NCBI GenBank assembly: GCA_018400015.1
Contig: JAGYNB010000001.1
Coordinates: 6,815-70,814 of the forward strand
DNA length: 64,000 nucleotides
From: Candidatus Omnitrophota bacterium
GTDB taxonomy: Bacteria > Omnitrophota > Gorgyraeia > Gygaellales > Gygaellaceae
Reading direction: 5' to 3'
The translations under genes were made by a program, and so were the position numbers. Positions 1,838 to 24,629 of this stretch are shown in pieces. The notes under the pieces were generated by a model. That model saw only the letters and a program-made list of their open reading frames with translations. It had not been told where the DNA came from and did no database searches. Each line of letters starts with the position of its first letter. The stretch's first letter is position 1.

Positions 1838-1944
1838 CTTTTATTAAGGTGATTTTTGTTTTTCGCGTTTCCTCCCGATAATCTTTATTTGTTGATTTAT
1901 TCTCCCAAGTATGATAATTTAGCAAAAAAGAAAGCAGATTTTCA

Positions 1945-2979
1945 ATGTTCTCGCCAAAACCAGAATTAAAAATCATATTTTTAGAAACTACCACAGCATG
2001 TAATCTTAATTGTGTTCATTGTAGGCGTAAAGTTTCTCATTTTGAACGCCAAAACGGCGAGCTTATTTTTAAGCAAATCACGGATTTAATAGATGAGGTT
2101 GTTGATTTTGCTAAGCCGTTTATTGTTTTAAGCGGCGGAGAACCGCTTTTAAGAAATGACATTTTTGAGATAGCACGCTATATTAAAAGTAAAAATTTAA
2201 AAGTCGGTCTTGCTACCAATGCGGTTTTGATAGACGAGCTGAAGGCGGAAAAAATAAAACAGGCAAAAATTGACATTGTAAGCGTAAGTATCGACAGCAT
2301 TGACGAAAGCGCTCATGATGCATTCCGTAATAGCCGGGGCGCTTTTAAAGCTACCTTAGAAGGCATAAGGTTATTAAAAAAACATAAAATCGCTTTTCAA
2401 ATCAATACAACCGTTACCAAACATAATTACTTGCAGATCGCGCAGATGACCACATTTAGTAAAAACTTGGGTGCATCGGCGCTTCATCTTTTTATCCTTG
2501 TGCCTGTTGGTTGCGGAAAAAAAATTCCTGTTAATGATATGCTCTCAAGCAGAGAATGCGAAGGCTTGTTAAGGCAGGTATTTTTAATGAATAAAAATAA
2601 CGATTTTAATATTCGTCCGACATGCGCCCCGTTTTTTGCAAGAATATCCGACGATAACAGCAAAACAAAGGCGGGCGGTTGTCTTGCCGGTAAAAGTATT
2701 ATTTTTGTTTCTTCAACCGGGGAAGTTTTTCCCTGTGGATATTTTGATCGCCCTGTGGCGAATATTAAAAATATCGGATTAAAAAAGATATGGCAGGAAA
2801 ATAGTTTTCTAAAAAAGCTAAGAGATCCTTTAGAATTAAAAGGGAAATGTTCTATTTGCGAATATAAAATTAGTTGCGGTGGGTGCCGGGCAAGAGCGTT
2901 TGCTCAGACTGGGGATTATTTTGCCCAAGACCCGGTTTGTAATTATGCGCCTGCTAAGTTGAGTGAAATAAAAAAATGA
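1945..2979 (+). CDS. Radical SAM enzyme with C-terminal SPASM domain (AhbD/NirJ/PqqE/anSME-like)
   Basis: CNLNCVHC (CxxxCxxC) near the N-terminus. C-terminal seven-Cys tail: ...CSICEYKISCGGCRARAFAQTGDYFAQDPVC. Its stop overlaps the next start (ATGA). Confidence 0.85.
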   Translation: MFSPKPELKIIFLETTTACNLNCVHCRRKVSHFERQNGELIFKQITDLIDEVVDFAKPFIVLSGGEPLLRNDIFEIARYIKSKNLKVGLATNAVLIDELKAEKIKQAKIDIVSVSIDSIDESAHDAFRNSRGAFKATLEGIRLLKKHKIAFQINTTVTKHNYLQIAQMTTFSKNLGASALHLFILVPVGCGKKIPVNDMLSSRECEGLLRQVFLMNKNNDFNIRPTCAPFFARISDDNSKTKAGGCLAGKSIIFVSSTGEVFPCGYFDRPVANIKNIGLKKIWQENSFLKKLRDPLELKGKCSICEYKISCGGCRARAFAQTGDYFAQDPVCNYAPAKLSEIKK

Positions 2980-3767
2980 GAGAAATTGCAATTTACGGTA
3001 AAGGCGGAATCGGCAAAAGTTTTATTGCCAGCCACATATCTTATTGTCTTGCCGAAAAAGGTTTTAATGTTTTGCAAATTGGTTGTGACCCAAAACAGGA
3101 TAGCTGTGCGTTATTGCTCGATCGCAAAAGGATTCTTTCGGTTTTGGATTGGTTGAAAGAACGCGATTTTAATAAAGAAGATATAAATACGGAAGAGTTT
3201 ATTTTTGCTGTCAGCAAAAATAAAATCACCAACGGCAAAGTTTATTGTATAGAATCCGGAGGTCCTGAACCAGGCGTGGGTTGTGCAGGTAAAGGTATCG
3301 CCGAGGCTGTAGAGCTTATTAAGCAAAGCGGCCTGCAGCAGAGAAAAAAAATAGATTTTACTATCTACGATGTTTTAGGCGACGTAGTCTGCGGTGGTTT
3401 TTCGCTGCCGATAAGAGAGGGCTTTGCCAAGGAGATTTATATTGTTACTAGTTCCGAGCCAGAGTCCATTTATGCCGCTGTTAATATTTCTAAAGCGATA
3501 ATTAAATTTTCTCAAAGATCCGGAGCGAAGCTTGCAGGGATAATCGGCAACTCTAGAAACGGCCGTACAAATGAAGACCGGCTTAATAATTTCGTGCACA
3601 TATTAGGCTCTAATTTATTGGGCATAGTACCTTTTGAGGATATTTATGAAACCGGGATCAGCAAGGATACAGCTGTTTATAGCAATATAAGAACATTAAC
3701 GGAAAAAATAATTGCGCAACCTAATTGTACAATCCCTAAAAATATTGACTCAGAACAAATTTATTAA
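2976..3767 (+). CDS. Nitrogenase iron-protein-like ATPase/reductase (NifH/BchL/CfbC family)
   Basis: P-loop YGKGGIGKS. Both cluster-Cys motifs are present: CIESGGPEPGVGCAGKGI and DVLGDVVCGGFSLPIREG. 263 aa. Confidence 0.85.
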   Translation: MREIAIYGKGGIGKSFIASHISYCLAEKGFNVLQIGCDPKQDSCALLLDRKRILSVLDWLKERDFNKEDINTEEFIFAVSKNKITNGKVYCIESGGPEPGVGCAGKGIAEAVELIKQSGLQQRKKIDFTIYDVLGDVVCGGFSLPIREGFAKEIYIVTSSEPESIYAAVNISKAIIKFSQRSGAKLAGIIGNSRNGRTNEDRLNNFVHILGSNLLGIVPFEDIYETGISKDTAVYSNIRTLTEKIIAQPNCTIPKNIDSEQIY

Positions 3768-3770
3768 ATT

Positions 3771-5009
3771 TTGAATCAAAAAGCGACAATAAACTTAGAG
3801 CATACATGTTCTACTTTGCAGGCGCTGGCAACGCTTAATAGAATTGATGGCGTAGTTGCGGTATTGCACGCCAACAGAAGTTGTTCGTTTTGCATGCAGA
3901 TTGGTTCTTTTTCCTGTGCCAAAGCCGGTTTTCCCGTGCTTGTCTCGACAGAGATCGAGGCTAAGGATTTAATTTTTGGAGCCGAGAAAAAACTTAAAAA
4001 AACAATATTGGATGTGTTTGAACGGGTTTGCCCTCAAGCCATAGTTGTGTTAAATACCTGCACAGCGCAAATTAATAATGAGGACATAGAAGGATGTTTA
4101 AGCGCGCTAAGAAAGCAAATCCCTTGCGTTTTAAGTTTCTGCAATACAGGATGTAATATTTTGGGTTCACAGAGCGCGGGTAACGATTTTGCGTGGCAGG
4201 CGTTATTAAAACAAATTACACCTACGGATAAGAAAATTAAAGCTATTGGTCTTCTCGGCCGTTCGGGGATGGACACCGGTTCCCTTTCAGGCATAGAAGC
4301 CATTCTTGATAATTCAGGCATTGGTTATTTTTCTTTTCCGCAAAAAACCTTTCAAGAAACACACAAGATTACTTTGGTAAAAGACATTTTTGTTTTAAGC
4401 CCGGTTCCTTATTTTTCGTGCAAGACGTTAAAGGATAGGTTCGGCGTGAATTGTCATTATGGGGAGGTTCCAGCAGGCATAGAGGCGACAACCAAATTCC
4501 TTTTATTGTTGGCGGAGCACACCAAAAGCAAAAAACTTATTGATGTAGTAAAAAAAGAAAAAGCCAAGATTTTGCCAAAAGCAGGGTTATTAAAAAGTAA
4601 GCTTAGGGCAAAAAGACCGAATGTTTTATGCGCCTATGGTCCGGGCAATGAGTTTTCCATCGCCAAGATCCTCGCTGAATTCGGCGCGAACGTTTTTTTA
4701 TTAACCCAGCTGGACAATGAGTTTGCCAAGAAAGAAAAAATGATATTGAACGATAGGTACGGAGTAAACGTTTTAGATGATTCACCTGCGGATATACAGC
4801 AGATTATAGAAGAAAATAAAATCAACGCTGTCTTTACTGAGATTCAGTTTCCCCGAAAGCTGATTTCAAACAGGCCAATTTTTTATAATATGTTTTATTC
4901 TGGAGAATACGGTTATGGTTTTGCAATCAATTTTGTTGAAAACTTTCTTAGGTGTATAAATAATAAGGCCTACTATCAATGGGGGAAAATTAATGAACGC
5001 TATAGATAA
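3771..5009 (+). CDS. Nitrogenase component-1-like subunit (NifD/NifE/BchN-like)
   Basis: 412 aa. The N-terminus carries a cluster of Cys (HTCST, RSCSFCMQ, RVCPQ, NTCTAQ) as in the NifD/BchN fold. It is translationally coupled to the NifH-like gene, with a TTG start 4 nt after the upstream stop. Confidence 0.65.
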   Translation: MNQKATINLEHTCSTLQALATLNRIDGVVAVLHANRSCSFCMQIGSFSCAKAGFPVLVSTEIEAKDLIFGAEKKLKKTILDVFERVCPQAIVVLNTCTAQINNEDIEGCLSALRKQIPCVLSFCNTGCNILGSQSAGNDFAWQALLKQITPTDKKIKAIGLLGRSGMDTGSLSGIEAILDNSGIGYFSFPQKTFQETHKITLVKDIFVLSPVPYFSCKTLKDRFGVNCHYGEVPAGIEATTKFLLLLAEHTKSKKLIDVVKKEKAKILPKAGLLKSKLRAKRPNVLCAYGPGNEFSIAKILAEFGANVFLLTQLDNEFAKKEKMILNDRYGVNVLDDSPADIQQIIEENKINAVFTEIQFPRKLISNRPIFYNMFYSGEYGYGFAINFVENFLRCINNKAYYQWGKINERYR

Positions 5010-6518
5010 ATGAAAGATTTAAGAATAAAAAAAATATATAGGCCTACATTCGTAGAAGGGGTATTTTGGACGCTTGCCGGGATAAAAGATGCGGTTGTTG
5101 TGTTTCATTCTCCCGGAGGTTGTTATGTTTCTCAAATGCAGACTTTATTGAGCCTCGATGAACCTTACGCTGATTTTTACACAAGCAACCTTTCTATGCC
5201 CAGCTTAATTATTTCTGGAGAGGATAGATTAAAAAGCGTTCTTGAGAAAGCAAAAGTAAATTCGAGCGATTGTTTGTTCGTTATCGATTCAGTGCCCGCT
5301 AGCATGATCAAGGAGGATTTAGACGGGGTTGTCGAATGTTTTGGGTTTAAGAATGCCGTTGTATTGAATGTCGATTCGGATAAAACCTTGAATGAAGGCA
5401 GAGATTATGCTTTGCTTAGACTTCTGCCCATGATGCAAAAGGGTTTAGAAAAAAAAGACAAAACTGTTAATATTATCGGCCCCACATGCTGTATGTATAA
5501 TTGGCGTTCAGATGTAGCTGAAATAAAGCGCGTTCTTAATGATATCGGGGTCAGCGTAAATACAGTTTTGTGCGCAGGCTGTACGCTCGAACAGATAAAA
5601 AAAGCGCCCCAGGCCCGTCTTAATCTTTGTGTATACCCGCATGATTGCGGATTGAGTCTTGCAAAGAAGATGGAGAGCAGTTTTAATATTCCGTACTTTA
5701 AAGATGTTGTTCCTATTGGTTTTGAGCAAACCGCAAACTGGCTGGAGCAGGTGGCCCAATTTTTTTCTTTGGATCCCAATGATTATTTGAAAAAACAGAT
5801 GAAAGAAGCAATGAGGTTCATGGATTCTAATTTTATTTTTTCTGTTAGTCATGATTCAAAAGCAGCATTAAGCGTGCAAAATCATAATACTTACGCTTTA
5901 GGGATAAGCCGGTTTTTGCAAAATGAATTAGGCACGGAGGTTTCCGCAGTAATAACTACCGATAAGAATATTCATAGCAAGTTAAGAAATGATGTTGGGC
6001 GCGTATTATTTTCTCCCGATATCAATCAGATAAGAAGTTTATTTATAGAAGTCTGTCCTACAGTCGTATTAGGCAGTTTTTACGAATTTGCCATCACTAA
6101 AGAAGTTGGGATAAAGAATTTTCTTTATTGCGATATACCTATGCCGAAAAATATCATTACACAAAGTTCTCCCTATATGGGGTTTAGGGGAGCGGTAAAT
6201 TTAATCCAACAGATAGCCACTCAGACGATTTCCAGCCTGTTTATAGATGCCAAAAGCGATACGGATGTTGAGCTTGGCAAGTCTGTTGTGAAATGGGAAC
6301 CTTTTGCTATTTCTGCGTTGGGCGAGATTGCAGAAATGATCCCTTATTTTGTAAGGACCGTGGCAATTAAAAAAATAAAACTGGAAGCAGAACAGTTGGC
6401 AAAAAAGCTGGCAACTCCAGTAGATACAGATATTTTAAGGCGCTCTCTAGAAAAAAACAGCCATTTTAGAAACAATCAAAAAGTCGATATGATATTTAAA
6501 AAGCAGAACCAGGCATGA
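5010..6518 (+). CDS. Nitrogenase component-1-like subunit (NifK/NifN/BchB-like)
   Basis: 502 aa. HSPGGC motif and the overall NifK/BchB-like pattern. Its start abuts the upstream stop, and its stop overlaps the next gene. Confidence 0.65.
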   Translation: MKDLRIKKIYRPTFVEGVFWTLAGIKDAVVVFHSPGGCYVSQMQTLLSLDEPYADFYTSNLSMPSLIISGEDRLKSVLEKAKVNSSDCLFVIDSVPASMIKEDLDGVVECFGFKNAVVLNVDSDKTLNEGRDYALLRLLPMMQKGLEKKDKTVNIIGPTCCMYNWRSDVAEIKRVLNDIGVSVNTVLCAGCTLEQIKKAPQARLNLCVYPHDCGLSLAKKMESSFNIPYFKDVVPIGFEQTANWLEQVAQFFSLDPNDYLKKQMKEAMRFMDSNFIFSVSHDSKAALSVQNHNTYALGISRFLQNELGTEVSAVITTDKNIHSKLRNDVGRVLFSPDINQIRSLFIEVCPTVVLGSFYEFAITKEVGIKNFLYCDIPMPKNIITQSSPYMGFRGAVNLIQQIATQTISSLFIDAKSDTDVELGKSVVKWEPFAISALGEIAEMIPYFVRTVAIKKIKLEAEQLAKKLATPVDTDILRRSLEKNSHFRNNQKVDMIFKKQNQA

Positions 6519-7627
6519 AACAAAATTTTTTAAATAGGGTTCACTTTAAGGTTATTCTGTTTATGGTAAAAAGAGCCATAGGGATAAAAAAGGGCCCAGT
6601 TAAAGTTGGTTTACAGATAACAAAAAGGTGTAATCTTAATTGTGTCCAATGTTCTGTAAAAGATACGGATGATTCTTTTGATGAACTTGACATCCAAGAA
6701 ATCGAAAAAGTTTTATTGAGTCTTAATAAGCTTGGTTGCGGGTTTTTGGTTTTGACTGGAGGAGAGCCTTTGTTAAGAGGCGATATTTGTCAGATAGTCG
6801 AGCTAACTTCCAAGTTTGGTTATACGACCGCACTGGCTACCAACGGGACAATTTTAACAAAAGAAATTGCCGAAAAGCTTAAGTTTGCCGGATTAAGCCT
6901 TTTTCACCTTTCATTAGACGCAGCCACTGCTGATAAACACGATGCCTTTCGCGGCGAAGGATCATTTAAAAAAACGCTTCAAGGTATTAGAATTGCAGTT
7001 GCAACAGGGTTGCCCGTGTGTGTCACAACTACAATAACAAGACAGAACAAAAACGAATTAGAGGAAATAGTAAAGCTTTTAGAAAAAGAAAAGGTACAGC
7101 AATGGTCGCCGATTTTTCTTGTTCCCTGCGGCCAGGCTGAAAAGATATATCACTCGCAAGCGGTAAAAGAAACAAATGAAATCCTGGCCTTATTTGATAA
7201 GTTGTATATAATAGAAAATAAGTTTAATAAAAGAATCAAAATATATATACACGATCCGCACACATATTTTGCTTATCTTTTGTTTAATAAAAAAGCAAGC
7301 TTTATGAGAAGAGTATTTTTTCATATAAGAAAAGGCTGCGGTATCTTAAACAGGTTTACGCTTTATATAAATAGCGACGGCACAATTAAGCCTTGCGCGT
7401 ATTATCCCGAGAGTCTCAAAGAGGTTAATGTAAAAACACACGATTTAAAAGATGTGTTTATAACAAATGGCGAGTTGGCAATGTTAAGAAATAAGCGTGC
7501 CTTAAAAGGTCAATGCAGGGAGTGTAGGTTTCTTTTTTGTTGCGGTGGGTGCCGAGCGAAAGCGCTTATTATAGGCGGAGACCATTTCGTCGAGGAAAAA
7601 AGCTGCCCCTTTTTTTTAAAAAGATGA
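6515..7627 (+). CDS. Radical SAM enzyme with SPASM domain (paralog 2)
   Basis: CNLNCVQCSVK motif. C-terminal ...CRECRFLFCCGGCRAKALIIGGDHFVEEKSCPFF. Confidence 0.85.
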   Translation: MKQNFLNRVHFKVILFMVKRAIGIKKGPVKVGLQITKRCNLNCVQCSVKDTDDSFDELDIQEIEKVLLSLNKLGCGFLVLTGGEPLLRGDICQIVELTSKFGYTTALATNGTILTKEIAEKLKFAGLSLFHLSLDAATADKHDAFRGEGSFKKTLQGIRIAVATGLPVCVTTTITRQNKNELEEIVKLLEKEKVQQWSPIFLVPCGQAEKIYHSQAVKETNEILALFDKLYIIENKFNKRIKIYIHDPHTYFAYLLFNKKASFMRRVFFHIRKGCGILNRFTLYINSDGTIKPCAYYPESLKEVNVKTHDLKDVFITNGELAMLRNKRALKGQCRECRFLFCCGGCRAKALIIGGDHFVEEKSCPFFLKR

Positions 7628-7893
7628 AAGAACAGAAAAAACTATTTTTTCAAAAAATTGCCACCTTGATTTTAATTTTTACTAGTTATGCTTTTAATTA
7701 TTATTGGGTTTTTAACAATCTTTATTGGGTGGGCATTTTGTTTGTTTTGATAGGTTTGTATTTATTTTTTAAGCTTGTCAAAGCAAAAATCATGGCAGAG
7801 ATAGTTTTTTGGTCTTTTTGTCTTGCCACAGTTACGATATTTATCATAAAGGCGATTTATTTTTGGTTTGGAATACACATAAGAACATGTTAA
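7624..7893 (+). CDS. Small hydrophobic membrane protein (2-3 predicted TM helices)
   Basis: Internal ATG of the 7537 ORF, placed right at the rSAM stop. The product is almost entirely hydrophobic (ILIFTSYAFNYYWVF..., LFVLIGLYLFF...). Confidence 0.35.
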   Translation: MKEQKKLFFQKIATLILIFTSYAFNYYWVFNNLYWVGILFVLIGLYLFFKLVKAKIMAEIVFWSFCLATVTIFIIKAIYFWFGIHIRTC

Positions 7894-8132
7894 AAAAAAT
7901 TAAATCCGCATTGTTAAAGACAGGATTGGTTGTTGCTATTTTATTTTGGCATGACTTTTGTCATATTTGGGTTGGGAAAAGGCTTTATTTTATGATTCCC
8001 ATTGTTATAATCATTTCTTTTTATTCAATCATAAAAGCTTTTATGGAAAAGAATATTTACCGTTCGGGAGTTTGGCTGTGGGTATTTTTTTATGCTTCAG
8101 TTAATTTTATTGTTATGGCAATTTACCATTAG
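7887..8132 (+). CDS. Small hydrophobic membrane protein, paralog of the preceding one
   Basis: Similar hydrophobic pattern and similar C-terminus (..NFIVMAIYH versus ..IFIIKAIYFW). The start overlaps the previous ORF's end. Confidence 0.35.
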   Translation: MLKKIKSALLKTGLVVAILFWHDFCHIWVGKRLYFMIPIVIIISFYSIIKAFMEKNIYRSGVWLWVFFYASVNFIVMAIYH

Positions 8133-8135
8133 TTT

Positions 8136-8963
8136 ATGAAAATAGACGCGCTAGAGAAAACGCATTTTAATTATTTTCATTTCCATAAATGGAGCTTTGT
8201 TTTAAGGCAAAACAAGCATTTGTCTTTCTATAAACCATACTGGAAGAATATGGTTGTTAAAATGCACATAGCGCAGGAATTGTTTTTAAAGCACCTAGGT
8301 AGCTTAAAAAAAGAAATATCGATCGATAGTAAAGACACTGAAAAGTTAAATAACTTTTTTATATTCGACGCGGAGAAAATATTGGGTGATGCTAGATTAA
8401 CAGATACACAAAAGCAATGCCTTGATTACAGGATATCCGAACACAGAGAAATAGTCAAAACAGCGTATTTATTGCGCGAAATTTCCGGTCGTTTGGGGAT
8501 TAAGGCGTTGAAAGAAGCCGCCGGTTCTATAAAAAAAGATTTTGCATTGCGTCTTCAGAAAGTCACAGCAGAAAGCATTGATCGCAGAAAGAAAAAGAAA
8601 CTAAGTTTTCGTTATATGTTGGGGGATCACTTTATTACAATAGAAAAAACGCATTCTGCTTGCAGGCTTGTTTTTTTAAATTGCCCCATTTACGGAGTTT
8701 TCCATTATTTAGGATTTATGGCTGAAGGAGAGATTTTTTGTCAGCTGTGCGAAGCTCATGGAGAAATTATGACCAAAAGCAATATTCCAATAAGACATAA
8801 GTTTTCTTTATCGCACAGTCTATGTGCAGGAAGCAAAAGATGTGAATTCTCGATGAATGTTATTAACCCCGCCGTCAATTTATTATTAAAGTGCGTTCCT
8901 GATAAAACAATAAATTTTCTTTTGGGTTTGAGCGAGCCAAAACATATTAAGAATGAGTTTTAA
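8136..8963 (+). CDS. Hypothetical protein with a C-terminal Cys/His-rich region
   Basis: 275-aa ORF in operon context. The C-terminal region is CRLVFLNCPIYGV...CQLCEAHGE...CAGSKRCEF. I recognise no family with confidence. Confidence 0.45.
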   Translation: MKIDALEKTHFNYFHFHKWSFVLRQNKHLSFYKPYWKNMVVKMHIAQELFLKHLGSLKKEISIDSKDTEKLNNFFIFDAEKILGDARLTDTQKQCLDYRISEHREIVKTAYLLREISGRLGIKALKEAAGSIKKDFALRLQKVTAESIDRRKKKKLSFRYMLGDHFITIEKTHSACRLVFLNCPIYGVFHYLGFMAEGEIFCQLCEAHGEIMTKSNIPIRHKFSLSHSLCAGSKRCEFSMNVINPAVNLLLKCVPDKTINFLLGLSEPKHIKNEF

Positions 8964-10041
8964 ATTCCTTTTAGCGGTTATTGCCCACAGGTTTAGATTT
9001 AGCAAAAGTCCCATAGTTGCTTTCTTAGAGGTTACCCAAAAGTGCAATATGAATTGTATATATTGTTCAAGCGACATGGGTTTATCCTCCGGAGAAGAGC
9101 TGAGCTTGGAACAGATCAAGAAATTAATTCGGGATTTTAAGAAGCTGGGTGTTTTTGTTTTTAATATTATTGGCGGCGAGCCGTTGTTGCGCAAAGATTT
9201 AATTGATATTGTACGTTTTGGTGCAAAGCAGGGCCTGATGACCAATATTTTGACTAACGCAACATTGTTAGACCTTCAGACAGCCCAGAATATAAAAAAA
9301 AGCGGTTTGAGCTTGTTTTCCCTTTCTTTGGACGGTTCTAATGAGGCAATTAATTCGTTGACAAGAGGCAAAGGAAGTTTTGAGAGAATTTTAACCGGTA
9401 TCGCTAATGCTATTTCAACAGGTTTGCCGGTTATGGTTAAGATCACCCTGCAGAAACAAAACATCGATGATTTAGAAAATATTGTAAGGTTGTTAATTGA
9501 AAAAAGGGTGAGTTTGTGGACAGCTGATTTTGCCATTCCCTGCGGCAGGGCAAAGGAAATGAGCCCGCTTCAAGATTTTTCAGTACAAGAAAGAGGTAAA
9601 ATTATCGAAAAGATTTATGAGTTGGCGCAAAAGTTTAAAAAACAAATTAGTTTTTTTACAATGGATAAAATTTATTATAATGTTTATTCTTTGAAGCGAG
9701 AAAAGCCCAATGTTTTGCAGAAATTAATGCTTTATTCAAAAGGCGGCTGCGGGGTTTTGGACGGTAATAGCATATATATAAATTGTGATGGTTCTATCCG
9801 CCCGTGTCCATTCTTTCCTTTTGTGTTGCCAGAGGTAAATATAAAAACTCGTAGTGTAATAGATGTGTACCGGTATAATGAATATTTCGGAAAATTACGC
9901 GACAGAAAGAATTTAAAGGGCAAATGTTCAAGGTGTAAATTTAGCTTTATTTGCGGTGGGTGCCGGGCAAGAATATATGCTCAAACCGGAGACTTTTTTG
10001 CCGAAGACGCCTCTTGTGATTTGTTTGAAAGCGCTAGTTAG
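8953..10041 (+). CDS. Radical SAM enzyme with SPASM domain (paralog 3)
   Basis: CNMNCIYCSS motif. C-terminal ...CSRCKFSFICGGCRARIYAQTGDFFAEDASC. Confidence 0.85.
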   Translation: MSFKFLLAVIAHRFRFSKSPIVAFLEVTQKCNMNCIYCSSDMGLSSGEELSLEQIKKLIRDFKKLGVFVFNIIGGEPLLRKDLIDIVRFGAKQGLMTNILTNATLLDLQTAQNIKKSGLSLFSLSLDGSNEAINSLTRGKGSFERILTGIANAISTGLPVMVKITLQKQNIDDLENIVRLLIEKRVSLWTADFAIPCGRAKEMSPLQDFSVQERGKIIEKIYELAQKFKKQISFFTMDKIYYNVYSLKREKPNVLQKLMLYSKGGCGVLDGNSIYINCDGSIRPCPFFPFVLPEVNIKTRSVIDVYRYNEYFGKLRDRKNLKGKCSRCKFSFICGGCRARIYAQTGDFFAEDASCDLFESAS

Positions 10042-12722: not shown

Positions 12723-15700
12723 ATGCGTAAATTTATCAAAAAGGCAATTGCTATTTTTGTATGCTTTGTGTTTGTCTTTGAGCAGGCCGGTTTTGCCCAA
12801 AGCTTAAGCCGGATTGATTTTACTACCCATATAAACACTTTAAACAATCAGTATAGTTATGAAAAGTTTCAACCTGCGCATTTAAGGATGCTTTCTTACG
12901 ATAGATATTCGCAGCAATTTAGTTTTTTGGTCGATAGAGGAGACTACAATAACATAGAAAAAGAATTTTTGAAGCAGGTAACAGATAAGTTGTTTAGGAT
13001 GTTTCTTATCGGTTTAACCCTGCCAGACGATTCATTCTGGGTCAATCTTAGGCCTGATTCTCCCGAAGATATAATTGATAGTAATCTTGCCAAGACAGAT
13101 ATGGGCAGAATTTTTCTTGAGGCAGACCTGCAGCTTAAAAAAGATACAGCACGCTTTACATCTCCAGCAACAAAAGAAGGCAACCTTTATTGGCAGAGGC
13201 TGCAAGAAAAAGCTAATGAGCTTTTTGGGGTTCCAAACGTAAATATTCCTACATTGGCTAGACCATGGATAGTGCCAGGAGAAATAATATTGCGCGAGAC
13301 CGCCAGCGACGTTTATATCTATAAGGCGACTATCAACGTGATGCTCGAAGAAGACTATATAAAAGATTATCCAAGGTTTAATTTTAAGGATAAGCGCATG
13401 AAGGAGTTAAATGAGCATGCCTCAAGGTTGATGCGCGAAATAATAATCCCTCGTCTGGTCAAGGAAGTTAACACAGCTAAAAGATACGCGAGGCTTCGGC
13501 AGGTGTTTTATTCTTTAGTTATGGCGAAATGGTTTAAAGAAAGATTTAAGAATTCATCAGGCCGTTATGTTAGGCTTATCAATCAAGGCAGGCTTGAAGG
13601 TTTATTGTCAAAAGAAAAATGGTCTGTTAAGCCGTATTTTGAAGCCTACCAGAAGTCATTTCAGGAGGGAGAATATGAAATAAAAGTTTTCGGCAAAGGC
13701 GGATCTAACAAGGTAAGAGTTTATTTTAGCGGCGGGGCTTTACCCATGCCTAATGTAATACCTGATCCAGGGGAAACTATTGTTGATTCCGCTACCGGAA
13801 CAACGATAACTTCTATTTCCGCGCAAGAACAAATAGTTTTAGAGCAGGCGCCCCGGATTATCAAACAGGATACAAACGTTTTGATTAGCGAAGGAGAAGA
13901 CGTTTCCATTAATCCCGATGCCGTAGATGAAGACAGAAGATATCATGCTGACGAGAGAGAAAAATATAACCGTATACTTAAGTGGACAGAGACGGCAGAT
14001 CTTTTAAAAAGTGTATGGATCAGAGCATTGTCAGCAATGAATCCGGAAAGAAAAGAAAATCTGTTTAATACCGAAATTGAGCTTTTGATTGATTATCTAC
14101 AGACGCAGAATCCTTTGGGGCAGATTTTAAATAAAGGGAACACCGGCGATAGAATCGTAGTTTTTCAGGTTCCTGGAATTGCCAGGGAAGGTTTTGGCAT
14201 AAAAGACTTAAATGATAAGTTAGGGTACGAGCTTAATACAAGGCTTATCGGTGTTAGAAGGCAGATGATTTCGGAGTTAATGAAAGAAAAAGGGCTTATT
14301 GAAAATGACGGGTTAATTTATAGTACGTACAAAGAAGATGTTTTTCTTGTATCAAGCGATATTCAAATATCGCCGCAGATGTTGCAGGAAATTCAGCATG
14401 AATTGATTGCAAGAATCGGGCAGATTTTAAGAGGCCAATTCGAGTTTAGCAATGCCTTGCGCGTTAATGGTGTTAAGATCCAGCAGTTCAATAATGAGCC
14501 TCTCTATGCTTTAGGTTTTGGCATAGCGCAAATTACCGGTTCTTTGCCGCATGAAAGGATTTTAGCTGACATAAATGCACACCAGGCAATCGTTATAGGA
14601 GAGAATAACGCTGGTTCCAATTACACATTTTCTGAAAAAGATTACAACAAGGTTATTTTCGAGATTGATAGACTTCGTGGTCAACTTAATGAAAATTCGT
14701 ATATTTTTGAAGCAAACGAAGCAGGAGAATTATTTTTGTCACAAGAAGTCGCTGTCGCCCTAAGGGATAATTTGGATTGGGATGGCTTATCAATGCAAGC
14801 GAGAGAACAATTTATAAACGAAGTTAATTTCAATAACGCCAGGCAGTATTTCAGGCTTATTAAAATACAGGATTATATTAAAAAATGGCAGATTGATTTT
14901 GAAAAAGCAAGGGGCCGCTCTCAGCAAATAACCGCTTTAACAGAAAAACTTAAACAGAAGATAGCTCAAAGAGAAGAAAAATATCTTGTACCTATAGATA
15001 ACGAATTGCTTGAATTGGTTGTCCAGGCAAGAGATTTTATTGAAACAGAAACAAAATTGCCGGAGTTTGATTCTGAATTCGCTTTTTACTCCCGCGGTCC
15101 CCCTATGGAGAAGCCGATTTTTGTAACTCTGGATATCAAGAAAATGGGCATTATGAATATAAACGCCAACGAAATAGAACTGCAAAGAGTTTCATCTGCT
15201 CTTCAGTCAGGAGAAGTAGCGTCTTTAGAGGATATTTGGCTTTCGGCCGCAGACAGTGTTACAGAAAATCTTATTGAAACAATGAGAATAGCCAAAGACG
15301 GCATTATCCGAGAATTGGGTATTTCGGAAGATGATTTAACTGTATTAATGGGAGGAGATGAATTTACGTTAGTTTTTGAAGATAATTTGTCTGACAGGTT
15401 AGAAGAAGTTTTATATAAGGTAAAGAACCAGATAAAAGATAAAACTGGGATTGAAGCGAGAATCTGCGCCTCTACTGCAGCTTTAGAATTCGAAAGCGAA
15501 TTTTTTAACCGCAAAGACAATAATTATGAACATTTGGCCTTTGCAAAAACCATTTTAAGTTTAGAGGATGGCATTGCACGGTTAAAAGCATTAGAAAAAC
15601 AAGGCATCCAAGATTTTATAATTATTCAAGATGAAAAAGGTAATTGGCCTGATGTAAAGTCAAGAGTTGAATCAGAAATCAAAAAAGATAAAACTATAAC

Positions 15701-18700
15701 TAGAAGAAGTTTTCTTAGAACACTCGGTTTAGGAACATTGGCTTTAGCAGGCGCAGCTTTTGTCCCTGAATCGGCGAAAGCCGGTATCAGGATGGTTTTA
15801 AGTGATGTGACAGAAGAAAAAGTTTCTGAGTATGAGATGTGGGCGAATCGTTTAGCCGAACTATCCGGGAATAAACAAGAATTTATAGCTGCCTGTAATC
15901 AGCTGCAGCGGCTCATCCATGAAGAAAAAAAACTACATCTTTATAAAGCATACGAAACTGTTATTCAAAGCTCTTTTAATAGATTCCCTCGCGATATTCA
16001 AAGAAGGATTGTTGCTGATACTATAGAATATGTTATTTTCCAGACGGTTAATTTAAAACTTAGCGAACAAGCCAATGCGATTGTTTTAAATTGGCTTTCC
16101 CGCGAAGAAAATCTTAAGTTTGACTCAAAAGACGATTATCAAGTTCAGGCAGATATTGCTTCGCATATAATTCTTTTTTCCTCTAAGTATACCGATACAT
16201 TAGGCAAGGTTTTTAATGGTTATGCAGATGGCGCAATAAAACTCATGAATAAATCAGTTTTCAGGTATTTTGATACGATTAGCAACCAAACTATACAAAA
16301 TAGGTTGATCGATTTTATATCAAATCTCCAGATCAGCGAAAGCAATTTGGATTTGATTAATGAGGTTTTCGCTTCTTTAGGGAGAAAAATCAATGTTATA
16401 CATGATGCAAATGAATATGGCGATTGGCAGGGAGAGATAGTAAAATTTTTAGCTTCTTTTGGAAACAAAGACAGAATATTGCATTTGCTTATTGCTTATG
16501 GAGGCTTTGAACTTTATACGGGAACATTCCAGACTGTCTACAAACTGGCAGAGAAAAGCATAGCGGCAACAGGAGGTATGATTAATTGGTTAAAAAGGGT
16601 CGATGCAGAAAATCTTACCCGTGAACAATTCTTATTAGCCATATCCAGCCGCAATAAGTTGATCGATTTGGTTAGGAATACCAATGCTGATCCGCAGGAA
16701 ATAACGGGCGTATTAATAAATGTATGCGATGTTGTTAAAGAGATAATTGTTAATAAGCACCAGGATAGAAGAAGCTTGGCCTACATATCCAATGCCATAG
16801 AGCAGATATTTCGGTTTGATAACGATCAGGTAAAAGAATATTTAAAAGATATTGTTCTCGCCTTGGCAAAAGAAAACAACCTAACCCTTGTAGTTTTTTC
16901 TTATGTGGTTATTGCTAAGTTTAATGATATTTTTGAAGAAGATATAAAAGAATTTGAAAATGTAGAAAAAAAATTTCTTAATTTAATTAACTATCTTAAT
17001 GCGCCACCAAAAACAGTTTTGATAAACAACCGTTTAGTTGTTTTGGTTGATTATGCAAGTTCAGCTGCAAGTTATTTGGAAGATTTGAAAACCCTTTTTT
17101 CCACTCGTTACAGGTCAAATTATGATATTACTTATCCCAATAAGACAGAGCGGGATGCCGGTATAAAATATAAAATTACCGGGCAGGTTGACGGTATTGA
17201 TATCGAGTTTCATCTTGCAGAAAATATCAAAGGAGAGGATTTTAGAAAAGCTCTCGAGTCCGGTAGGTATTCTATGTTTTGTACAAGACACCATTCTTTT
17301 GAAGGGGCAGAGTTCGCGGGGGTTGGTTCAGATAAGGTATTGCCACAGTTTATTGGTACAATCGGTACTGGCCAAGGAGGAGAAAATAATAGTATGGCAG
17401 TTGTTTTGGCTGAAGAGGTGGCTAAGGCTGTTTCCAGGGATAAACATAACAGTTGGCAAGATATCCGTATGGTGATCGAATCAGGATTAAATCCACAGAC
17501 AGGAAAATTCAATAACGCCGATAGAAGAATGGGTTTGGATAATTTTATTCTTCCAGATTTTCTTGCTAACGTTATGTCATATGTTTTAAATGCCTCTTGG
17601 GATGGATTGCCGGATGCCCAAGAAGTTCGGCCTGTTATTATATTTGACGGCGGATGCGGAGGCGTTAATAGGATTCCCGAATATATCCCCAAGTATAATA
17701 AGGCGTTAGGGAATACGGATTTCTCAAGATTGATTTCTTTGGGTGCGGCTGTTGGCGGGATACAAGGATTAATGAGCGGCAATTTACAGGTCAGCGAGGA
17801 TATTAAGATCGAAATTGATTCAACCGTGGGTTCTAATTACGGATATGGAGAAAGAGTTCCAGAAGAAGAAGTTTTTGAGATTATCAAAAGGGAACGCGAT
17901 GTACAAGAGTTTATGCTTAAAAACCATCCTGAAGTGATACAACAGACGATAGACAATCTTGGTTTTGGTTTTAGTCTAGGCGATTTGGCAAGAATTGTAA
18001 TTTCCTATGAGGCATCCGGAAGCAATAAGCATGTTTTAAAGATCAAAGTTTTTACGGTAACAGGCGAAGAGAAGGCGTTTTTGATAGCTAAAAAAATTCC
18101 AGTAAAAGAAGGGTTTTTATTTGAAGAAGGCGAGGAGTCTGCCCAGCGCAATTTACAAAAAACAGGTTTAGTGCCTAGATTAGGCAAAGTTTATTATTTG
18201 AAAGAAACAGATTCAGGGTTTGAGTATCATGAAAACCCACCAGAAGAAGGCAATTTTGAAACAAGGGTCGCGGAAGAATTTATAAACGGTTTTACTTTAG
18301 CTGAATTAGAGTTTTTTATAGAGCAGTTTTTAGGTACAAAAAAAGCAAGAGAGACAATAAACGGTTTGTTGCAATCTGATCGCGGCAGCAGAGAATATAA
18401 CCTATATCTTGAAAAGTTGAAATCGTTAATTCAAAGTAAGGGGTTTTCAAAGGTTCAGACAGCCAGGCTTATTGAGCTTGCTCAGACCTTGGTGGATTTT
18501 GACAACGAATATAAAATATTGTCCGATGCTGCTGGTCAGTTGTTGCCCGTTAGCTTTATTACTCAGGCTACAAATACTATATTTGATATATTCGCAGCTT
18601 TAAATGAGAACAGCTATTCATTAGAGGCAATATGGTCGCACGATGTTCATTGGAGCAATATAATGTTTGAAAAATCCACAGGCAGGTTAGTCGTAGTTGA

Positions 18701-19610: not shown

Positions 19611-19619
19611 TTGGAGTCA

Positions 19620-20159
19620 ATGATGAGAGAAAAGGCAACAATATTAGATAAAATAATGATTCAAAGAGCAATAACAAGGATTGCGCATGAGGTTATTGAA
19701 AAGAATAAAGGAATTAATAATCTTTGCCTTGTGGGCATTAGAAATAGAGGCGTATTTATTGCAGAGCGGCTCAAGGAGAACATAAAGACAATAGAAAACA
19801 AAGAAGTTGATATCGGCATACTCGATATTACATTATACAGGGATGATTTGACTTTAATTTCGGAAAAGCCTGTTGTTCACAAGACCGAAATTAACTTTGA
19901 CATAAGCGATAAGAAAATAGTTTTAGTTGACGATGTTTTATATACGGGAAGGACGATTCGCGCTGCCTTAGACGCACTAAATGATTTTGGCCGGCCTAAA
20001 TCCATACAGCTTGCCGTGTTGATTGATAGAGGACACAGGGAACTTCCTATAAGGGCAGATTTTGTAGGTAAAAATATTCCTACGGCGACAAATGAAACGA
20101 TAGAAGTTCGCCTTATGGAAATAGACAAGAAAGAAGAAGTTGTTATCGTGGAGAAATAA
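19620..20159 (+). CDS. pyrR: Pyrimidine operon regulator / uracil phosphoribosyltransferase
   Basis: [31 protein letters not shown]... and the PRTase motif [12 protein letters not shown]. The true start is at 19620 or 19623, not the TTG at 19611. Confidence 0.9.
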
Positions 20160-20161
20160 AT

Positions 20162-21082: not shown

Positions 21083-21083
21083 T

Positions 21084-22364: not shown

Positions 22365-22366
22365 AT

Positions 22367-24152: not shown

Positions 24153-24165
24153 AAAATAGAAATCT

Positions 24166-24627: not shown

Positions 24628-24629
24628 CA

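Follow-up and report, generated by a model that had tools for sequence, protein, structure and literature searches.

A nine-gene Omnitrophota operon combines a nitrogenase-like reductase with three radical-SAM/SPASM paralogs and may encode anaerobic tetrapyrrole tailoring

Nine genes at positions 1945-10041 of the window, the 64,000-nt stretch of Candidatus Omnitrophota bacterium DNA analysed here, form a single operon in which a nitrogenase-like (NFL) reductase is combined with three radical-SAM/SPASM paralogs, a Cys/His protein and two small membrane proteins. With moderate confidence, the operon is read as an anaerobic tailoring pathway for a tetrapyrrole (a macrocycle of the porphyrin, siroheme or chlorin type). 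The pathway is most likely oxygen-free and not described so far, and would act on a ring molecule of the heme or chlorophyll kind. The source bacterium is probably host-dependent and poorly known. Its lineage is described as a fermenting one that lacks a respiratory chain and has incomplete cofactor synthesis, which leaves no obvious need for a heme-like product.

Layout, setting and conservation of the operon

All nine genes are on the (+) strand and tightly coupled, each overlapping or abutting its neighbour, with intergenic distances of -4, +3, 0, -4, -4, -7, +3 and -11 nt in gene order. The features are as follows.

1889..1918 (+): promoter-like element TTGTTGATTT...TATGATAAT, within the 106 nt separating tRNA-Glu from rSAM1, common to Gygaella
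1945..2979 (+): rSAM1, AhbD/NirJ2-type radical-SAM/SPASM enzyme, 344 aa (Pfam Radical_SAM and SPASM; NCBIfam), in the 'B' position immediately 5' of nflH
2976..3767 (+): NflH, NifH-like ATP-dependent [4Fe-4S] reductase subunit, 263 aa (Fer4_NifH, E 2e-75)
3771..5009 (+): NflD, NifD/NifE-like subunit, 412 aa, TTG start (Oxidored_nitro, E 3e-45)
5010..6518 (+): NflK, BchB-like NifK-type subunit, 502 aa (Oxidored_nitro, E 1e-57)
6515..7627 (+): rSAM2, radical-SAM/SPASM paralog, 370 aa, r2 orthologous group (Pfam, NCBIfam)
7624..7893 (+): M1, small membrane protein, 89 aa, about three predicted TM segments (hydropathy), its ATG overlapping the rSAM2 stop codon (ATGA)
7887..8132 (+): M2, small membrane protein and M1 paralog, 81 aa, about three predicted TM segments (hydropathy), overlapping M1 by 7 nt
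8136..8963 (+): p275, Cys/His protein, 275 aa, long helices at the N-terminus and, at the C-terminus, a V4R/H-NOX/Bet3-like domain
8953..10041 (+): rSAM3, radical-SAM/SPASM paralog, 362 aa, r3 orthologous group (Pfam, NCBIfam), its start overlapping p275 by 11 nt

The initial annotation had reported three radical-SAM ORFs in one operon, and the same coordinates and lengths were found here. A common operon is indeed present, but the three genes are not adjacent: they are separated by six further genes that went unmentioned, three of which encode the nitrogenase-like H, D and K subunits. The main feature of the operon, a NifH/NifD/NifK-like reductase, was thereby missed, as were p275 and the two small membrane proteins.

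Ca. Gygaella obscura, also an Omnitrophota bacterium, has the entire gene set in synteny at the equivalent chromosomal place, with 47-73% protein identity. In an unrelated metagenome contig (L028), the order rSAM1-like, NflH, NflD, NflK, rSAM3-type and p275-like is kept, and this cluster is followed by a CobN/Mg-chelatase gene (PF02514, E 2e-87). Radical-SAM/p275 modules also occur without NFL genes (L030 and L029, the latter an archaeal fusion), and the association of the two parts is therefore not obligatory. The site itself, located after gyrA and tRNA-Glu, differs in content among related Omnitrophota (the window and Gygaella, L030 and L027). Within the 64-kb window, searches for tetrapyrrole precursor genes (hemA/L/B/C/D, cysG and ahbA/B), a chelatase gene and sulfur-metabolism genes returned none.

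The 1839-1944 gap contains nothing other than the promoter-like element and one 37-aa TTG ORF, and the small-ORF search suggested earlier for 1838-1944 gave only this ORF, which is implausible as a coding sequence. The element is a candidate promoter by its sequence; it is absent among the sites listed by a consensus promoter scan. Over the 62 nt 5' of the rSAM1 ATG, identity to the matching region of Gygaella (L001) is roughly 75% (by eye), against 47-73% for the proteins.

The nitrogenase-like reductase

NflH carries the complete Fe-protein motif set, with nucleotide-binding and cluster-ligand motifs present (GKGGIGKS, CDPKQDS, GVGCAG and DVLGDVVCGGF). Its best NCBIfam scores, both below the cut-offs, are for nifH (254 bits) and CfbC (241), followed by BchL (177) and BchX (175); among solved structures, NifH and the MAR Fe protein are nearest (about 190-195 bits), with BchL behind at 135. 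NflD is likewise nearer to NifE (105 bits, profile against the PDB) and to the MAR-complex alpha-type chain 9d9u_A/9fmg_A, labelled 'MarD' here (85), than to BchN/ChlN (45). For NflK, sequence and predicted fold both point to DPOR BchB as the nearest relative: BchB provides the best PDB sequence matches and the best NCBIfam score (146 bits against a cut-off of 490; BchZ 115, also below its cut-off), and the top 14 Foldseek matches of the AF2 model (pLDDT 66, pTM 0.61) are DPOR BchB/ChlB, with a TMt of about 0.70 (2ynm_D: 0.59).

The invariant cluster cysteines of NflD are C13, C38 and C97, assigned to cluster positions through the NifEN alignment, and C49 is also invariant (alignment A2). In NflK, Cys38 aligns with BchB Asp36 and NifK Cys95. 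Four of the six P-cluster cysteines are retained in this way (three in NflD, one in NflK), and the alignments reveal no FeMo-co ligand equivalents in NflD/NflK, NflD having no counterparts of Cys275 and His442; a complex cluster is therefore unlikely. The four cysteines would suffice for one [4Fe-4S] cluster, and their three-plus-one pattern is that of the simple-cluster members NifEN and DPOR. Family-specific invariant residues of NflK (C207, D212 and C213; alignment A1) fall in an LNLxxYPxDCG stretch, which we take to align with the NifD Cys275 region. The counterpart of the BchB proton donor Asp274 is variable across the NflK family, and PCP_red, the C-terminal domain of BchB, is found on NflK relatives but is missing from the NflK of the window.

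DPOR and COR serve (bacterio)chlorophyll synthesis and, like CfbCD, reduce ring C=C bonds. DPOR (BchL/BchN/BchB) and COR (BchX/BchY/BchZ) share with the window a three-component ATP-dependent reductase having one [4Fe-4S] cluster at the D/K-type interface (predicted here), as well as the BchB affinity of NflK and the PCP_red domain of its relatives. The window differs by NCBIfam scores far below all cut-offs, the Cys in place of BchB Asp36, the non-conserved Asp274 equivalent, the missing PCP_red, an NflD nearer NifE than BchN, and the absence of other bch genes. The CfbCD system of coenzyme F430 is an NFL acting on a tetrapyrrole, Ni-sirohydrochlorin a,c-diamide; the CfbC score of NflH recalls it, and the more distant NflK relatives are CfbD-like proteins adjoining CobN, CbiZ and CbiC. 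However, CfbCD consists of H- and D-type subunits alone, with no K (PMC13474568, PMC11423573), whereas D and K are separate in the window, which has no cfbA/B/E genes and belongs to a bacterium, not a methanogen. Sister NflDK loci were found in Thermodesulfobacteriota, other 'delta proteobacterium' and Proteobacteria MAGs. Their neighbours include genes for a chelatase of the CbiX/ferrochelatase type, for an FAD enzyme resembling geranylgeranyl reductase and for B12-binding radical-SAM proteins.

Compared through their published descriptions, the loci that the operon resembles are those of Group VI NFLs, known from Elusimicrobia, Gracilibacteria and Myxococcales (Meheust et al. 2020, bioRxiv 10.1101/765248; Chem Rev 2026, PMC13474568 section 7), none of which has a characterised member and for which a tetrapyrrole substrate is predicted from context (bioRxiv 10.1101/765248; PMC13474568). 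Both have a NifH-like protein that contains a P-loop and two cluster cysteines, and both have adjoining radical-SAM genes. Their NifD/K-like subunits are highly divergent, retain no more than four of six P-cluster cysteines and lack FeMo-co ligands. The gene set is different: the number of radical-SAM genes in Group VI loci varies (0-13), and several of them carry fused B12-binding or HemN_C domains, whereas the window has exactly three AhbD/NirJ-type SPASM enzymes, accompanied by the V4R-like p275 and by M1 and M2. Group VI NifH stands beside Group V in the published tree, while NflH of the window scores higher with nifH and CfbC than with BchL and BchX, and Omnitrophota are not among the reported hosts (bioRxiv 10.1101/765248; PMC13474568).

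Radical-SAM paralogs, p275 and the membrane proteins

The shared architecture described in the initial annotation was recovered: all three proteins match Pfam Radical_SAM (E 6e-26 to 4e-30), exceed the SPASM gathering score, carry CN(L/M)NC(V/I)xC motifs (ACNLNCVHC, RCNLNCVQC and KCNMNCIYC) and end in CxxCx5CGGCRA(R/K)...C. Seven SPASM cysteines align across them, with one extra Cys each in rSAM2 and rSAM3. 'Near-identical' tails nevertheless proved an overstatement, since the Cys framework and CGGCRA are common but overall identity is only 29-38%. The suggested all-against-all BLASTP comparison gave 29% for r1/r2 (E 3e-45), 30% for r1/r3 (E 1e-40) and 38.5% for r2/r3 (E 3e-86), a similarity far beyond chance that points to paralogy. 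Triplication as a recent event does not hold, because r1, r2 and r3 form separate orthologous groups in an NJ tree, each with members from other lineages. Orthologues of rSAM1 occur in Gygaella (63%), L028 (43%), L027 (41%) and the fused domain of P0156 (37%), those of rSAM2 in Gygaella (63%), L026 (48%) and L030 (47%), and those of rSAM3 in Gygaella (66%) and L028 (47%).

In the family HMM search, also suggested earlier, the best families were AhbD, NirJ2 and TIGR04053, ahead of peptide maturases. For rSAM1 the scores are 337 bits for AhbD (full-length), 300 for NirJ2 and 282 for TIGR04053; for rSAM2, AhbD 198, TIGR04053 185 and NirJ2 172; for rSAM3, TIGR04053 209, AhbD 202 and NirJ1 171. The tetrapyrrole side-chain families AhbD, NirJ2, NirJ1, NirJ and AhbC (chemistry reviewed in PMC7242693) are thus best-scoring, and the analogy to AhbC/AhbD/NirJ drawn at first stands to this extent. 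It does not extend to orthology, because no protein reaches an equivalog cut-off in NCBIfam (140-337 bits against 500-650 for these families; 500 for AhbD and NirJ2). AhbC, AhbD and NirJ belong to the siroheme-dependent pathways of heme b and heme d1, which also have the radical-SAM/SPASM architecture and several paralogs per pathway (PMC7242693); the decarboxylase genes of these pathways, ahbA/B or nirDLGH, are not found nearby. The combination with a nitrogenase-like reductase is described for no pathway of the 2020 tetrapyrrole review (PMC7242693).

The p275 family is rare (a search of 1.84 billion proteins gave only 12 representatives at E<=1e-3), with D164, H165, C183, P184, C202, C205 and H208 invariant. 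In P0156, P0158 and P0154, p275 is fused N-terminally to a NirJ2/AhbD-like radical-SAM enzyme (378 and 375 bits for fused domains), and such fusions occur in archaea (e.g. L029). Foldseek matches of the AF2 model (pLDDT 85, pTM 0.86) to Bet3, MopR/PoxR and H-NOX are weak (E about 0.01, TM 0.3-0.5), as is an ATC_hydrolase match below the cut-off, and Pfam V4R has no significant match to the sequence. Heme is the ligand of H-NOX domains. V4R/BchJ, MopR-type sensors and H-NOX, whose fold is predicted for the C-terminal domain, bind hydrophobic or heme-type ligands, and by this fold p275 is proposed as a ligand-binding partner of the radical-SAM enzymes. V4R is named for bacteriochlorophyll 4-vinyl reductase and is a hydrophobic-ligand binder (PMC2253512), and MopR has a Cys-based Zn site close to its ligand pocket (PMC9556785), comparable to the Cys-rich metal site predicted in p275. 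Unlike these proteins, p275 is extended N-terminally by a long helical region that contains an HKW motif, and it belongs to a tiny family specifically linked or fused to AhbD/NirJ-like enzymes.

M1 and M2 (27% identical to each other) have no family match in Pfam, NCBIfam or PADLOC. M1 is 47% identical to a Gygaella counterpart of equal length and M2 55% to its orthologue, and both are missing from L028 and L030.

Proposed tetrapyrrole tailoring weighed against other readings

In the scheme that we infer, for its substrate and order of steps as for every catalytic role, NflH would hand low-potential electrons in an ATP-dependent manner from its [4Fe-4S] cluster to the NflD/NflK complex, which would have one [4Fe-4S] cluster at the subunit interface (ligands: three NflD Cys and one NflK Cys) and reduce one or more ring C=C bonds in the style of DPOR, COR or CfbCD. 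The three AhbD/AhbC/NirJ-like enzymes would act through a 5'-deoxyadenosyl radical on acetate or propionate side chains, which would be removed or converted by oxidative decarboxylation or by excision. The V4R/H-NOX-like p275, with its putative Cys3His metal site, may hold the hydrophobic macrocycle and present it to the radical-SAM enzymes, and M1/M2 may anchor the machinery or move substrate or product; the substrate could be cell-made or scavenged from a host. That three successive steps act on a single substrate, as had been proposed, we still only infer, and related loci (L028, L030 and L027) have one or two of the three paralogs.

Tetrapyrrole reduction has already been predicted for uncharacterised NFL plus radical-SAM loci (bioRxiv 10.1101/765248; PMC13474568). 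In the window, this reading is supported by the operon structure, the Gygaella synteny and the L028 cluster beside CobN, by the AhbD/NirJ-type scores, the nearness of NflK to BchB and the chelatase, CobN, CbiZ and CbiC neighbours of related loci, and by the NflH motifs, the NflD/NflK cluster cysteines and the fusion and predicted ligand-binding fold of p275. Counting against it are the lack of a precursor or chelatase gene in the 64-kb window, the fermentative character described for the lineage, the equivalog cut-offs not reached, the greater similarity of NflD and NflH to Nif and MAR proteins (NifE, the MAR D subunit, NifH) than to the DPOR subunits BchN and BchL, the non-conserved BchB Asp274 equivalent and Asp36 replaced by Cys, the weak fold matches of p275, and the radical-SAM/p275 modules without NFL.

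The order rSAM-H-D-K is that of the characterised Group IV systems IsrBHDK, MarBHDK and NfaBHDK, in which a radical-SAM gene lies immediately 5' of nflH-D-K (PMC11423573). It is possible, but unlikely, that rSAM1 and perhaps its paralogs build or activate the metal centre of the nitrogenase-like enzyme (as NifB does, and MarB and IsrB may) and that this enzyme reduces a small non-tetrapyrrole molecule, for instance by C-S bond cleavage of an organosulfur compound. The closeness of NflD and NflH to NifE, MAR subunits and NifH among solved structures, and the invariant C207, D212 and C213 of NflK aligned to the NifD Cys275 region, would agree with this. Group IV enzymes, however, mostly keep the P-cluster Cys, are thought to have a complex carbide-type cluster and act on N2 or organosulfur compounds (PMC13474568), and the cysteine pattern of NflDK speaks against such a cluster. 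Their 'B' proteins were recruited from unrelated lineages, with unclear role, and IsrB, MarB, NfaB and NifB have little in common beyond the radical-SAM motif (PMC11423573); for the window proteins, NifB is outside the best 25 families of each, in contrast to AhbD/NirJ families at 150-337 bits. Modules without nearby NFL (L030, L029), the chelatase, CobN and B12 neighbours of related loci, and the absence of sulfur-metabolism genes from the 64-kb window also weigh against it. A hydrophobic substrate other than a tetrapyrrole (isoprenoid, quinone or membrane lipid), with p275 as lipid carrier and M1/M2 as membrane site, is likewise unlikely: the best radical-SAM family matches are tetrapyrrole-specific, NflK is nearest BchB in sequence and fold, tetrapyrrole chelatases adjoin related loci, and no characterised NFL of the 2026 review has lipid or isoprenoid activity (PMC13474568). 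Evidence in its favour comes from the two membrane proteins, the geranylgeranyl-reductase-like enzyme of sister loci, and the varied hydrophobic ligands, including fatty acids and phenols, of V4R/Bet3-fold proteins. Tetraether synthase Tes, a SPASM radical-SAM enzyme acting on lipids, is also matched, weakly, by the fused homologue P0158.

Peptide maturation is a frequent function of SPASM enzymes, and modification or cross-linking of a peptide (possibly a small ORF product) or of a protein such as NflDK could be envisaged. Maturase families (WgkB, MftC, PqqE and ScmE/F) score 115-146 bits. WgkB, MftC and PqqE reach at most 139 with rSAM1; for rSAM2 and rSAM3 the gap between maturases (about 145 bits) and the top families is narrower. 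This reading is disfavoured and improbable, and the earlier argument against a RiPP system is borne out. Top families are AhbD, NirJ and TIGR04053; CxxxCxxC begins at residue 19, 39 or 31 (rSAM1, rSAM2, rSAM3), so that the 18-38 preceding residues leave no space for an RRE/PqqD-like domain, and the operon has no PqqD-like gene. The small-ORF search of 7628-8135 did uncover two conserved overlapping ORFs between rSAM2 and p275, but these are M1 and M2, hydrophobic, without leader/core appearance and missing in L028 and L030; no further conserved small ORF and no credible precursor were found at the operon. Also disfavoured, and highly improbable, is a defence or accessory island inserted beside tRNA-Glu without a role in cofactor metabolism, which the variable content of the site and matches of PADLOC viperin models to the radical-SAM cores might suggest. 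These matches span only the generic core (66-79 bits, against 198-337 for AhbD), NflD, NflK, M1, M2 and p275 have no defence-model match, and that of NflH is marginal (PDC-M28B, 19.7 bits). No integrase or repeats were seen, and the GC content of the operon (0.35-0.39) matches that of the flanks.

Operon organization and chromosomal surroundings

Nine genes, all on the forward strand, form a short, tightly packed and conserved operon, in which a nitrogenase-like (NFL) reductase is paired with radical-SAM enzymes, the nearest relatives of which have an established chemistry on tetrapyrroles, and with a protein that is a candidate for substrate binding. The successive junctions measure -4, +3, 0, -4, -4, -7, +3 and -11 nt. 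Three SPASM radical-SAM genes had been placed here by the initial annotation, and their coordinates and lengths agree exactly with the ORFs found.

Features of the operon and its immediate flanks (window coordinates)
1763-1838: tRNA-Glu(UUC), following the 3' end of gyrA, upstream of the operon
1889-1918: promoter-like stretch upstream of rSAM1, kept in the nearest relative (Gygaella)
1945-2979, +: rSAM1, radical-SAM/SPASM protein, 344 aa
2976-3767, +: NflH, NifH-like subunit
3771-5009, +: NflD, NifD/NifE-like subunit
5010-6518, +: NflK, NifK/BchB-like subunit
6515-7627, +: rSAM2, radical-SAM/SPASM protein, 370 aa
7624-7893, +: M1, small membrane protein, 89 aa, gene overlapping that of M2
7887-8132, +: M2, small membrane protein, 81 aa
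8136-8963, +: p275, Cys/His protein, 275 aa
8953-10041, +: rSAM3, radical-SAM/SPASM protein, 362 aa
10051-10079: promoter-like site belonging to glmS, the gene downstream of the operon

An Rfam search returned no riboswitch upstream of the operon. The nearest genome is that of Candidatus Gygaella obscura (GCA_030765485.1), an Omnitrophota MAG from Ace Lake, in which the same nine genes are found with 47-73% protein identity and occupy the same position in the order dnaA-dnaN-dciA-gyrB-gyrA-tRNA-Glu-[cluster]-glmS-rsmI-giant ORF. Given this synteny, with dnaA-dnaN-dciA-gyrB-gyrA just upstream, the origin of replication is probably a few kb away from the start of the window. GC skew is positive over the entire window (1-64000), and all ORFs of at least 150 aa are on the forward strand except one of 167 aa (58162-58665), which overlaps a longer forward-strand ORF and is probably spurious. 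The giant ORF directly after rsmI (12723-19382) encodes 2219 aa; its syntenic counterpart in Gygaella encodes 2083 aa and has no Pfam family on record, giant proteins being a trait reported for this class of Omnitrophota. Further along the same strand, a near-complete set for de novo pyrimidine synthesis (19611-32339; pyrR-like, pyrB, pyrC, carB, pyrK-like, pyrD, pyrF and pyrE-like) is broken up by a 413-aa ORF without Pfam match (22367-23608), a flavodoxin gene, a tRNA-Arg gene, a SLOG/LOG-like gene and fpg. It is followed by a V/A-type ATPase operon (32662-40611; subunits I, c, C/AC39, A, B and D), in agreement with the V-type ATPases and incomplete F1F0 apparatus reported for the phylum.

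The nitrogenase-like reductase and its radical-SAM partners

NflH retains every Fe-protein motif, namely the P-loop, switch I, the equivalents of Cys97 and Cys132, and switch II (GKGGIGKS, CDPKQDS, GVGCAG, DVLGDVVCGGF). Residues C13, C38 and C97 of NflD are invariant and correspond to C62, C88 and C154 of NifD and to C37, C62 and C124 of NifE (NifEN alignment and NflD family alignment). In NflK, C38 corresponds to C95 of NifK, to C44 of NifN and to the position of D36 in BchB (NifEN alignment and NflK family alignment), while Thr and Ser stand at the positions of NifK C70 and C153. Of the six P-cluster cysteines, four are present, which would suffice to bind a single [4Fe-4S] cluster between the D and K subunits. 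The regions of NflD that correspond to the FeMo-co ligands Cys275 and His442 contain neither an invariant Cys nor an invariant His. The cysteine arrangement of NflDK is like that of the simple-cluster NFL members NifEN and DPOR and unlike that of nitrogenase. Other invariant residues are specific to the family, namely C49 of NflD (window 3915-3917) and C207, D212 and C213 of NflK, within the stretch LNLCVYPxDCG (residues 204-214, window 5619-5651), which we take to align with the Cys275 region of NifD. DPOR BchB offers no equivalent of these four residues, which might serve as additional metal ligands or donate protons in catalysis.

The affinities of the three subunits form a mosaic. By sequence, NflK is closest to DPOR BchB, and the best 14 Foldseek matches of its AF2 model (pLDDT 66, pTM 0.61) are all BchB/ChlB, with TMt of about 0.70. 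The profile of NflD scores highest with NifE (105 bits), then with the alpha-type subunit of the MAR complex, the Group IV NFL system MarBHDK (85 bits), and reaches only 45 bits with BchN, while NflH resembles NifH and the MAR Fe protein more closely than it does BchL. The NCBIfam equivalog cut-offs are missed by far (BchB 146 versus 490, BchN 43 versus 420 and BchL 177 versus 345 bits). Besides these scores, the complex differs from DPOR in the Cys that replaces the Asp36 ligand of BchB, in the lack of conservation at the equivalent of the proton donor Asp274 in the NflK family alignment, and in the absence of the C-terminal PCP_red domain from the NflK of the window. It differs from NifHDK in lacking the set of six P-cluster Cys and the FeMo-co ligands, and no nifB, nifE or nifN is found in the window.

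NFL enzymes acting outside nitrogen fixation are a small and chemically unusual family. Likened by its features rather than by tree placement, the operon comes closest to Group VI, whose loci combine NflHDK with adjacent radical-SAM genes and are predicted to serve tetrapyrrole reduction (PMC13474568; bioRxiv 10.1101/765248). The shared features are the motifs of NflH, no more than four P-cluster Cys, the absence of FeMo-co ligands and the radical-SAM genes beside nflHDK. No member of Group VI has been characterised, the main barrier being that tractable systems and informative gene contexts are lacking (2026 review, PMC13474568). In the literature searched, the gene set finds no description: it combines, in Omnitrophota, three AhbD/NirJ-type SPASM paralogs in defined orthologous groups, a putatively V4R-like partner and two small membrane proteins.

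The three radical-SAM proteins share the motif CN(L/M)NC(V/I)xC and the C-terminal SPASM tail CxxCx5CGGCRA(R/K)...C, much as the initial annotation had described. Their seven SPASM Cys are aligned, and all three pass the Pfam gathering thresholds of PF04055 and PF13186. The paralogy that it proposed is borne out by all-vs-all comparison (E-values 1e-40 to 3e-86), whereas its description of the tails as near-identical was too strong, the pairwise identities being 29% (rSAM1/rSAM2), 30% (rSAM1/rSAM3) and 38.5% (rSAM2/rSAM3). The best NCBIfam families are AhbD (337 bits), NirJ2 (300) and TIGR04053 (282) for rSAM1, AhbD (198), TIGR04053 (185) and NirJ2 (172) for rSAM2, and TIGR04053 (209), AhbD (202) and NirJ1 (171) for rSAM3. 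None of the proteins reaches the equivalog cut-off of AhbD (TIGR04545; 500 bits) or those of NirJ, NirJ1, NirJ2 and AhbC (TIGR04051, TIGR04054, TIGR04055 and TIGR04546; 500-650 bits), for which the highest score is that of rSAM1 with NirJ2 and the others range from 134 to 193 bits. By these profile scores, rSAM1-3 lie within the AhbC/AhbD/NirJ neighbourhood, yet are not orthologues of those enzymes, which act on macrocycles derived from siroheme and either decarboxylate or excise their acetate and propionate side chains (PMC7242693). Peptide-maturase families score lower than AhbD and NirJ in the same search (115-146 bits), so that the analogy with AhbC, AhbD and NirJ drawn at first reading is retained. 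NifB is absent from the best 25 NCBIfam families of each paralog, and no account of TIGR04053 was found in the literature searched.

Distribution of the gene set and the p275 family

The nine-gene cluster finds no mention in the Omnitrophota genome literature searched. A metagenome scan with a six-member p275 alignment (a 12-member alignment being too divergent as a query) led to L028, an 11.4-kb contig on which counterparts of six of the nine genes keep the order of the window and a CobN/Mg-chelatase gene comes next. Its identities to the window are 43% for the rSAM1-like protein, 47% for NflH, 41% for NflD, 39% for NflK, 47% for the rSAM3-like protein and 31% for the p275-like protein. In neighbour-joining trees, its NflD and NflK cluster with those of the window and Gygaella, and the radical-SAM proteins form three ancient groups of orthologues (r1, r2 and r3). 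Two further Omnitrophota-like contigs carry a different content after gyrA and tRNA-Glu. On L030, two radical-SAM genes of r2/r3 type come with p275 and a putative TonB-receptor gene, and NFL genes are absent; on L027, a gene of r1 type and a pair of p275-like genes precede the contig end. Across these gene sets, the radical-SAM enzymes and p275 are thus the constant module, to which NflHDK is attached only in some lineages, and the gyrA/tRNA-Glu site looks like a variable locus, since the island found there includes NflHDK in some related genomes and not in others.

A word-indexed homologue search with NflD returned only NflD itself and one Gygaella-type relative. With NflH as the query, the matches ran to thousands of NifH and CfbC proteins of a generic kind (41-47% identity). 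Elusimicrobia-labelled proteins are absent from the 120 nearest relatives of NflH and from the relatives of NflD and NflK. The next relatives of NflD and NflK (33-39% identity) come from MAGs labelled Thermodesulfobacteriota, 'delta proteobacterium', Proteobacteria and Gammaproteobacteria and belong to a second layout (loci L008, L009, L010, L011, L012, L013, L015, L018, L019 and L020). In it, nifH-like genes come in twos, a second D-K pair is frequent, and the K subunit, of ~580 aa, ends in the PCP_red domain of BchB. Genes for a MarR regulator, for a chelatase of CbiX/ferrochelatase type and for an FAD enzyme resembling geranylgeranyl reductase recur alongside, as do radical-SAM genes with B12-binding domains. 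The layout recalls DPOR plus COR. The possibility that the deltaproteobacterial relatives carry the radical-SAM genes of the operon was rejected, as no full-length AhbD/NirJ-type gene lies nearby; the sole trace is a 214-aa fragment in L008 with weak similarity to rSAM2. Distant NflK-like proteins (24-28% identity) are encoded by CfbD-like genes adjoining CobN, CbiZ and CbiC. Another type of NFL locus, found through relatives of NflH (L033, GCA_964424395.1, 2417-9986), has NflH-D-K flanked by two radical-SAM genes, one B12-binding and one plain, as well as by a fusion of radical-SAM and methyltransferase domains and a gene for a U32 peptidase. In view of all these neighbours, tetrapyrrole chemistry is the theme that recurs around this family.

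Relatives of p275 are scarce, with 12 found by exhaustive HMMER search among 1.84 billion representatives, and share the motifs HKW, DH, NCP and FCxxCxxH. In three proteins (P0154, P0156 and P0158), a p275-like domain is fused N-terminally to a radical-SAM/SPASM enzyme that is closest to rSAM1 (NirJ2 378, AhbD 375 bits). One such fusion, of 700 aa and with a NirJ2/AhbD-like enzyme part, is encoded as a stand-alone gene on an archaeal contig (L029, 10001-12103), near genes for Cdc6/Orc1 and for a subunit of an archaeal DNA polymerase and without NFL genes nearby. The fusions link p275 functionally with AhbD/NirJ-like enzymes and provide a separate lead on how substrates are delivered to radical-SAM tetrapyrrole enzymes. 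The AF2 model of p275 is confident (pLDDT 85, pTM 0.86) and gives weak yet consistent Foldseek matches to Bet3/TRAPP, to the phenol-sensor domain of MopR/PoxR and to H-NOX heme domains (E 7e-3 to 3e-2, match probability about 1.0, TMt 0.4-0.5). Pfam V4R does not match p275, and ATC_hydrolase reaches 19.5 bits with the p275 of the window (cut-off 28.1) and E 3e-5 with the best family member. Bet3 is homologous to the prokaryotic V4R domain, which is thought to bind hydrophobic ligands and owes its name to the 4-vinyl reductase of bacteriochlorophyll synthesis (PMC2253512), and in MopR a Cys-based zinc site lies at a distance of about 10 Å from the ligand pocket (PMC9556785). From these fold matches, p275 would be a carrier or adaptor that binds a ligand and has a putative Cys3His metal site. 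M1 and M2 are paralogs (27% identity), each predicted to span the membrane about three times; both are kept in Gygaella and absent from L028 and L030.

Function of the operon and competing explanations

Anaerobic tetrapyrrole tailoring is the best-supported reading of the operon and is slightly favoured overall: the NFL enzyme would reduce the ring, the radical-SAM enzymes would perform the side-chain chemistry, p275 would carry the substrate, and M1 and M2 would supply the membrane link. This reading is weakened by the absence of tetrapyrrole precursor and chelatase genes from the 64-kb window, by the radical-SAM scores below cut-off, by the occurrence of the radical-SAM/p275 module without NFL, and by the fermentative lifestyle and reduced cofactor repertoire of the lineage. 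Genes for siroheme decarboxylase (ahbA/B, nirDLGH) and siroheme synthesis were found neither in the window nor in the Gygaella locus. A more specific proposal, tentative and rather doubtful as a whole, is that an undescribed tetrapyrrole-type cofactor is made, or remodelled from scavenged host material, by an NFL ring reductase and three AhbD/NirJ-like side-chain enzymes in a fermentative, probably host-dependent Omnitrophota, with p275 as a new class of dedicated radical-SAM tetrapyrrole carrier. If so, the operon would be the most compact, expression-ready way into Group VI-like NFL function, and, should it yield a cofactor not seen before or serve to convert tetrapyrroles scavenged from a host, this would also bear on how reduced-genome Omnitrophota acquire cofactors. 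The pairing of reductase, radical-SAM enzymes and carrier candidate already defines a concrete set of substrates testable by heterologous expression.

The strongest rival, although improbable, is a 'BHDK' logic, according to which rSAM1, directly upstream of nflH, would be the counterpart of the B gene that holds this position in Isr, Mar and Nfa, which are characterised systems whose radical-SAM gene is still of unclear role (PMC11423573). It is countered by the lack of ligands for a complex cluster in NflDK and by the radical-SAM/p275 modules that occur independently of any NFL. A hydrophobic substrate other than a tetrapyrrole is a little less probable still. A RiPP or protein-maturation system is quite improbable, and the case that the initial annotation had made against RiPPs is upheld. 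In rSAM1-3 the radical-SAM motif begins after no more than 18-38 residues, which leaves the N-termini too short for an RRE domain; there is no PqqD-like gene; maturases are outscored; and the search for small ORFs yielded conserved membrane proteins and no credible precursor peptide. What that annotation had overlooked is the reductase that defines the system, while its enzyme-family analogy stands. A defence island is the least credible explanation, as the PADLOC matches are generic radical-SAM core matches to viperin models (66-79 bits) and a marginal match of NflH to PDC-M28B (19.7 bits), and PADLOC found no match for NflD, NflK, M1, M2 or p275.

In island variants without NFL genes, a TonB-dependent receptor gene comes right after p275 (L026 1471-1923, with a Plug domain; L030 10816-11229, a putative receptor ORF), which hints that the radical-SAM/p275 module may act on an imported compound. 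The tRNA-Glu(UUC) gene always lies between gyrA and the radical-SAM/p275 island (1763-1838 in the window, 6761-6834 in the Gygaella locus L001, 7442-7516 in L030 and 1336-1410 in L027). Glu-tRNA is the precursor of tetrapyrroles in the C5 pathway, and the presence of its gene beside a putative tetrapyrrole operon is probably a coincidence.
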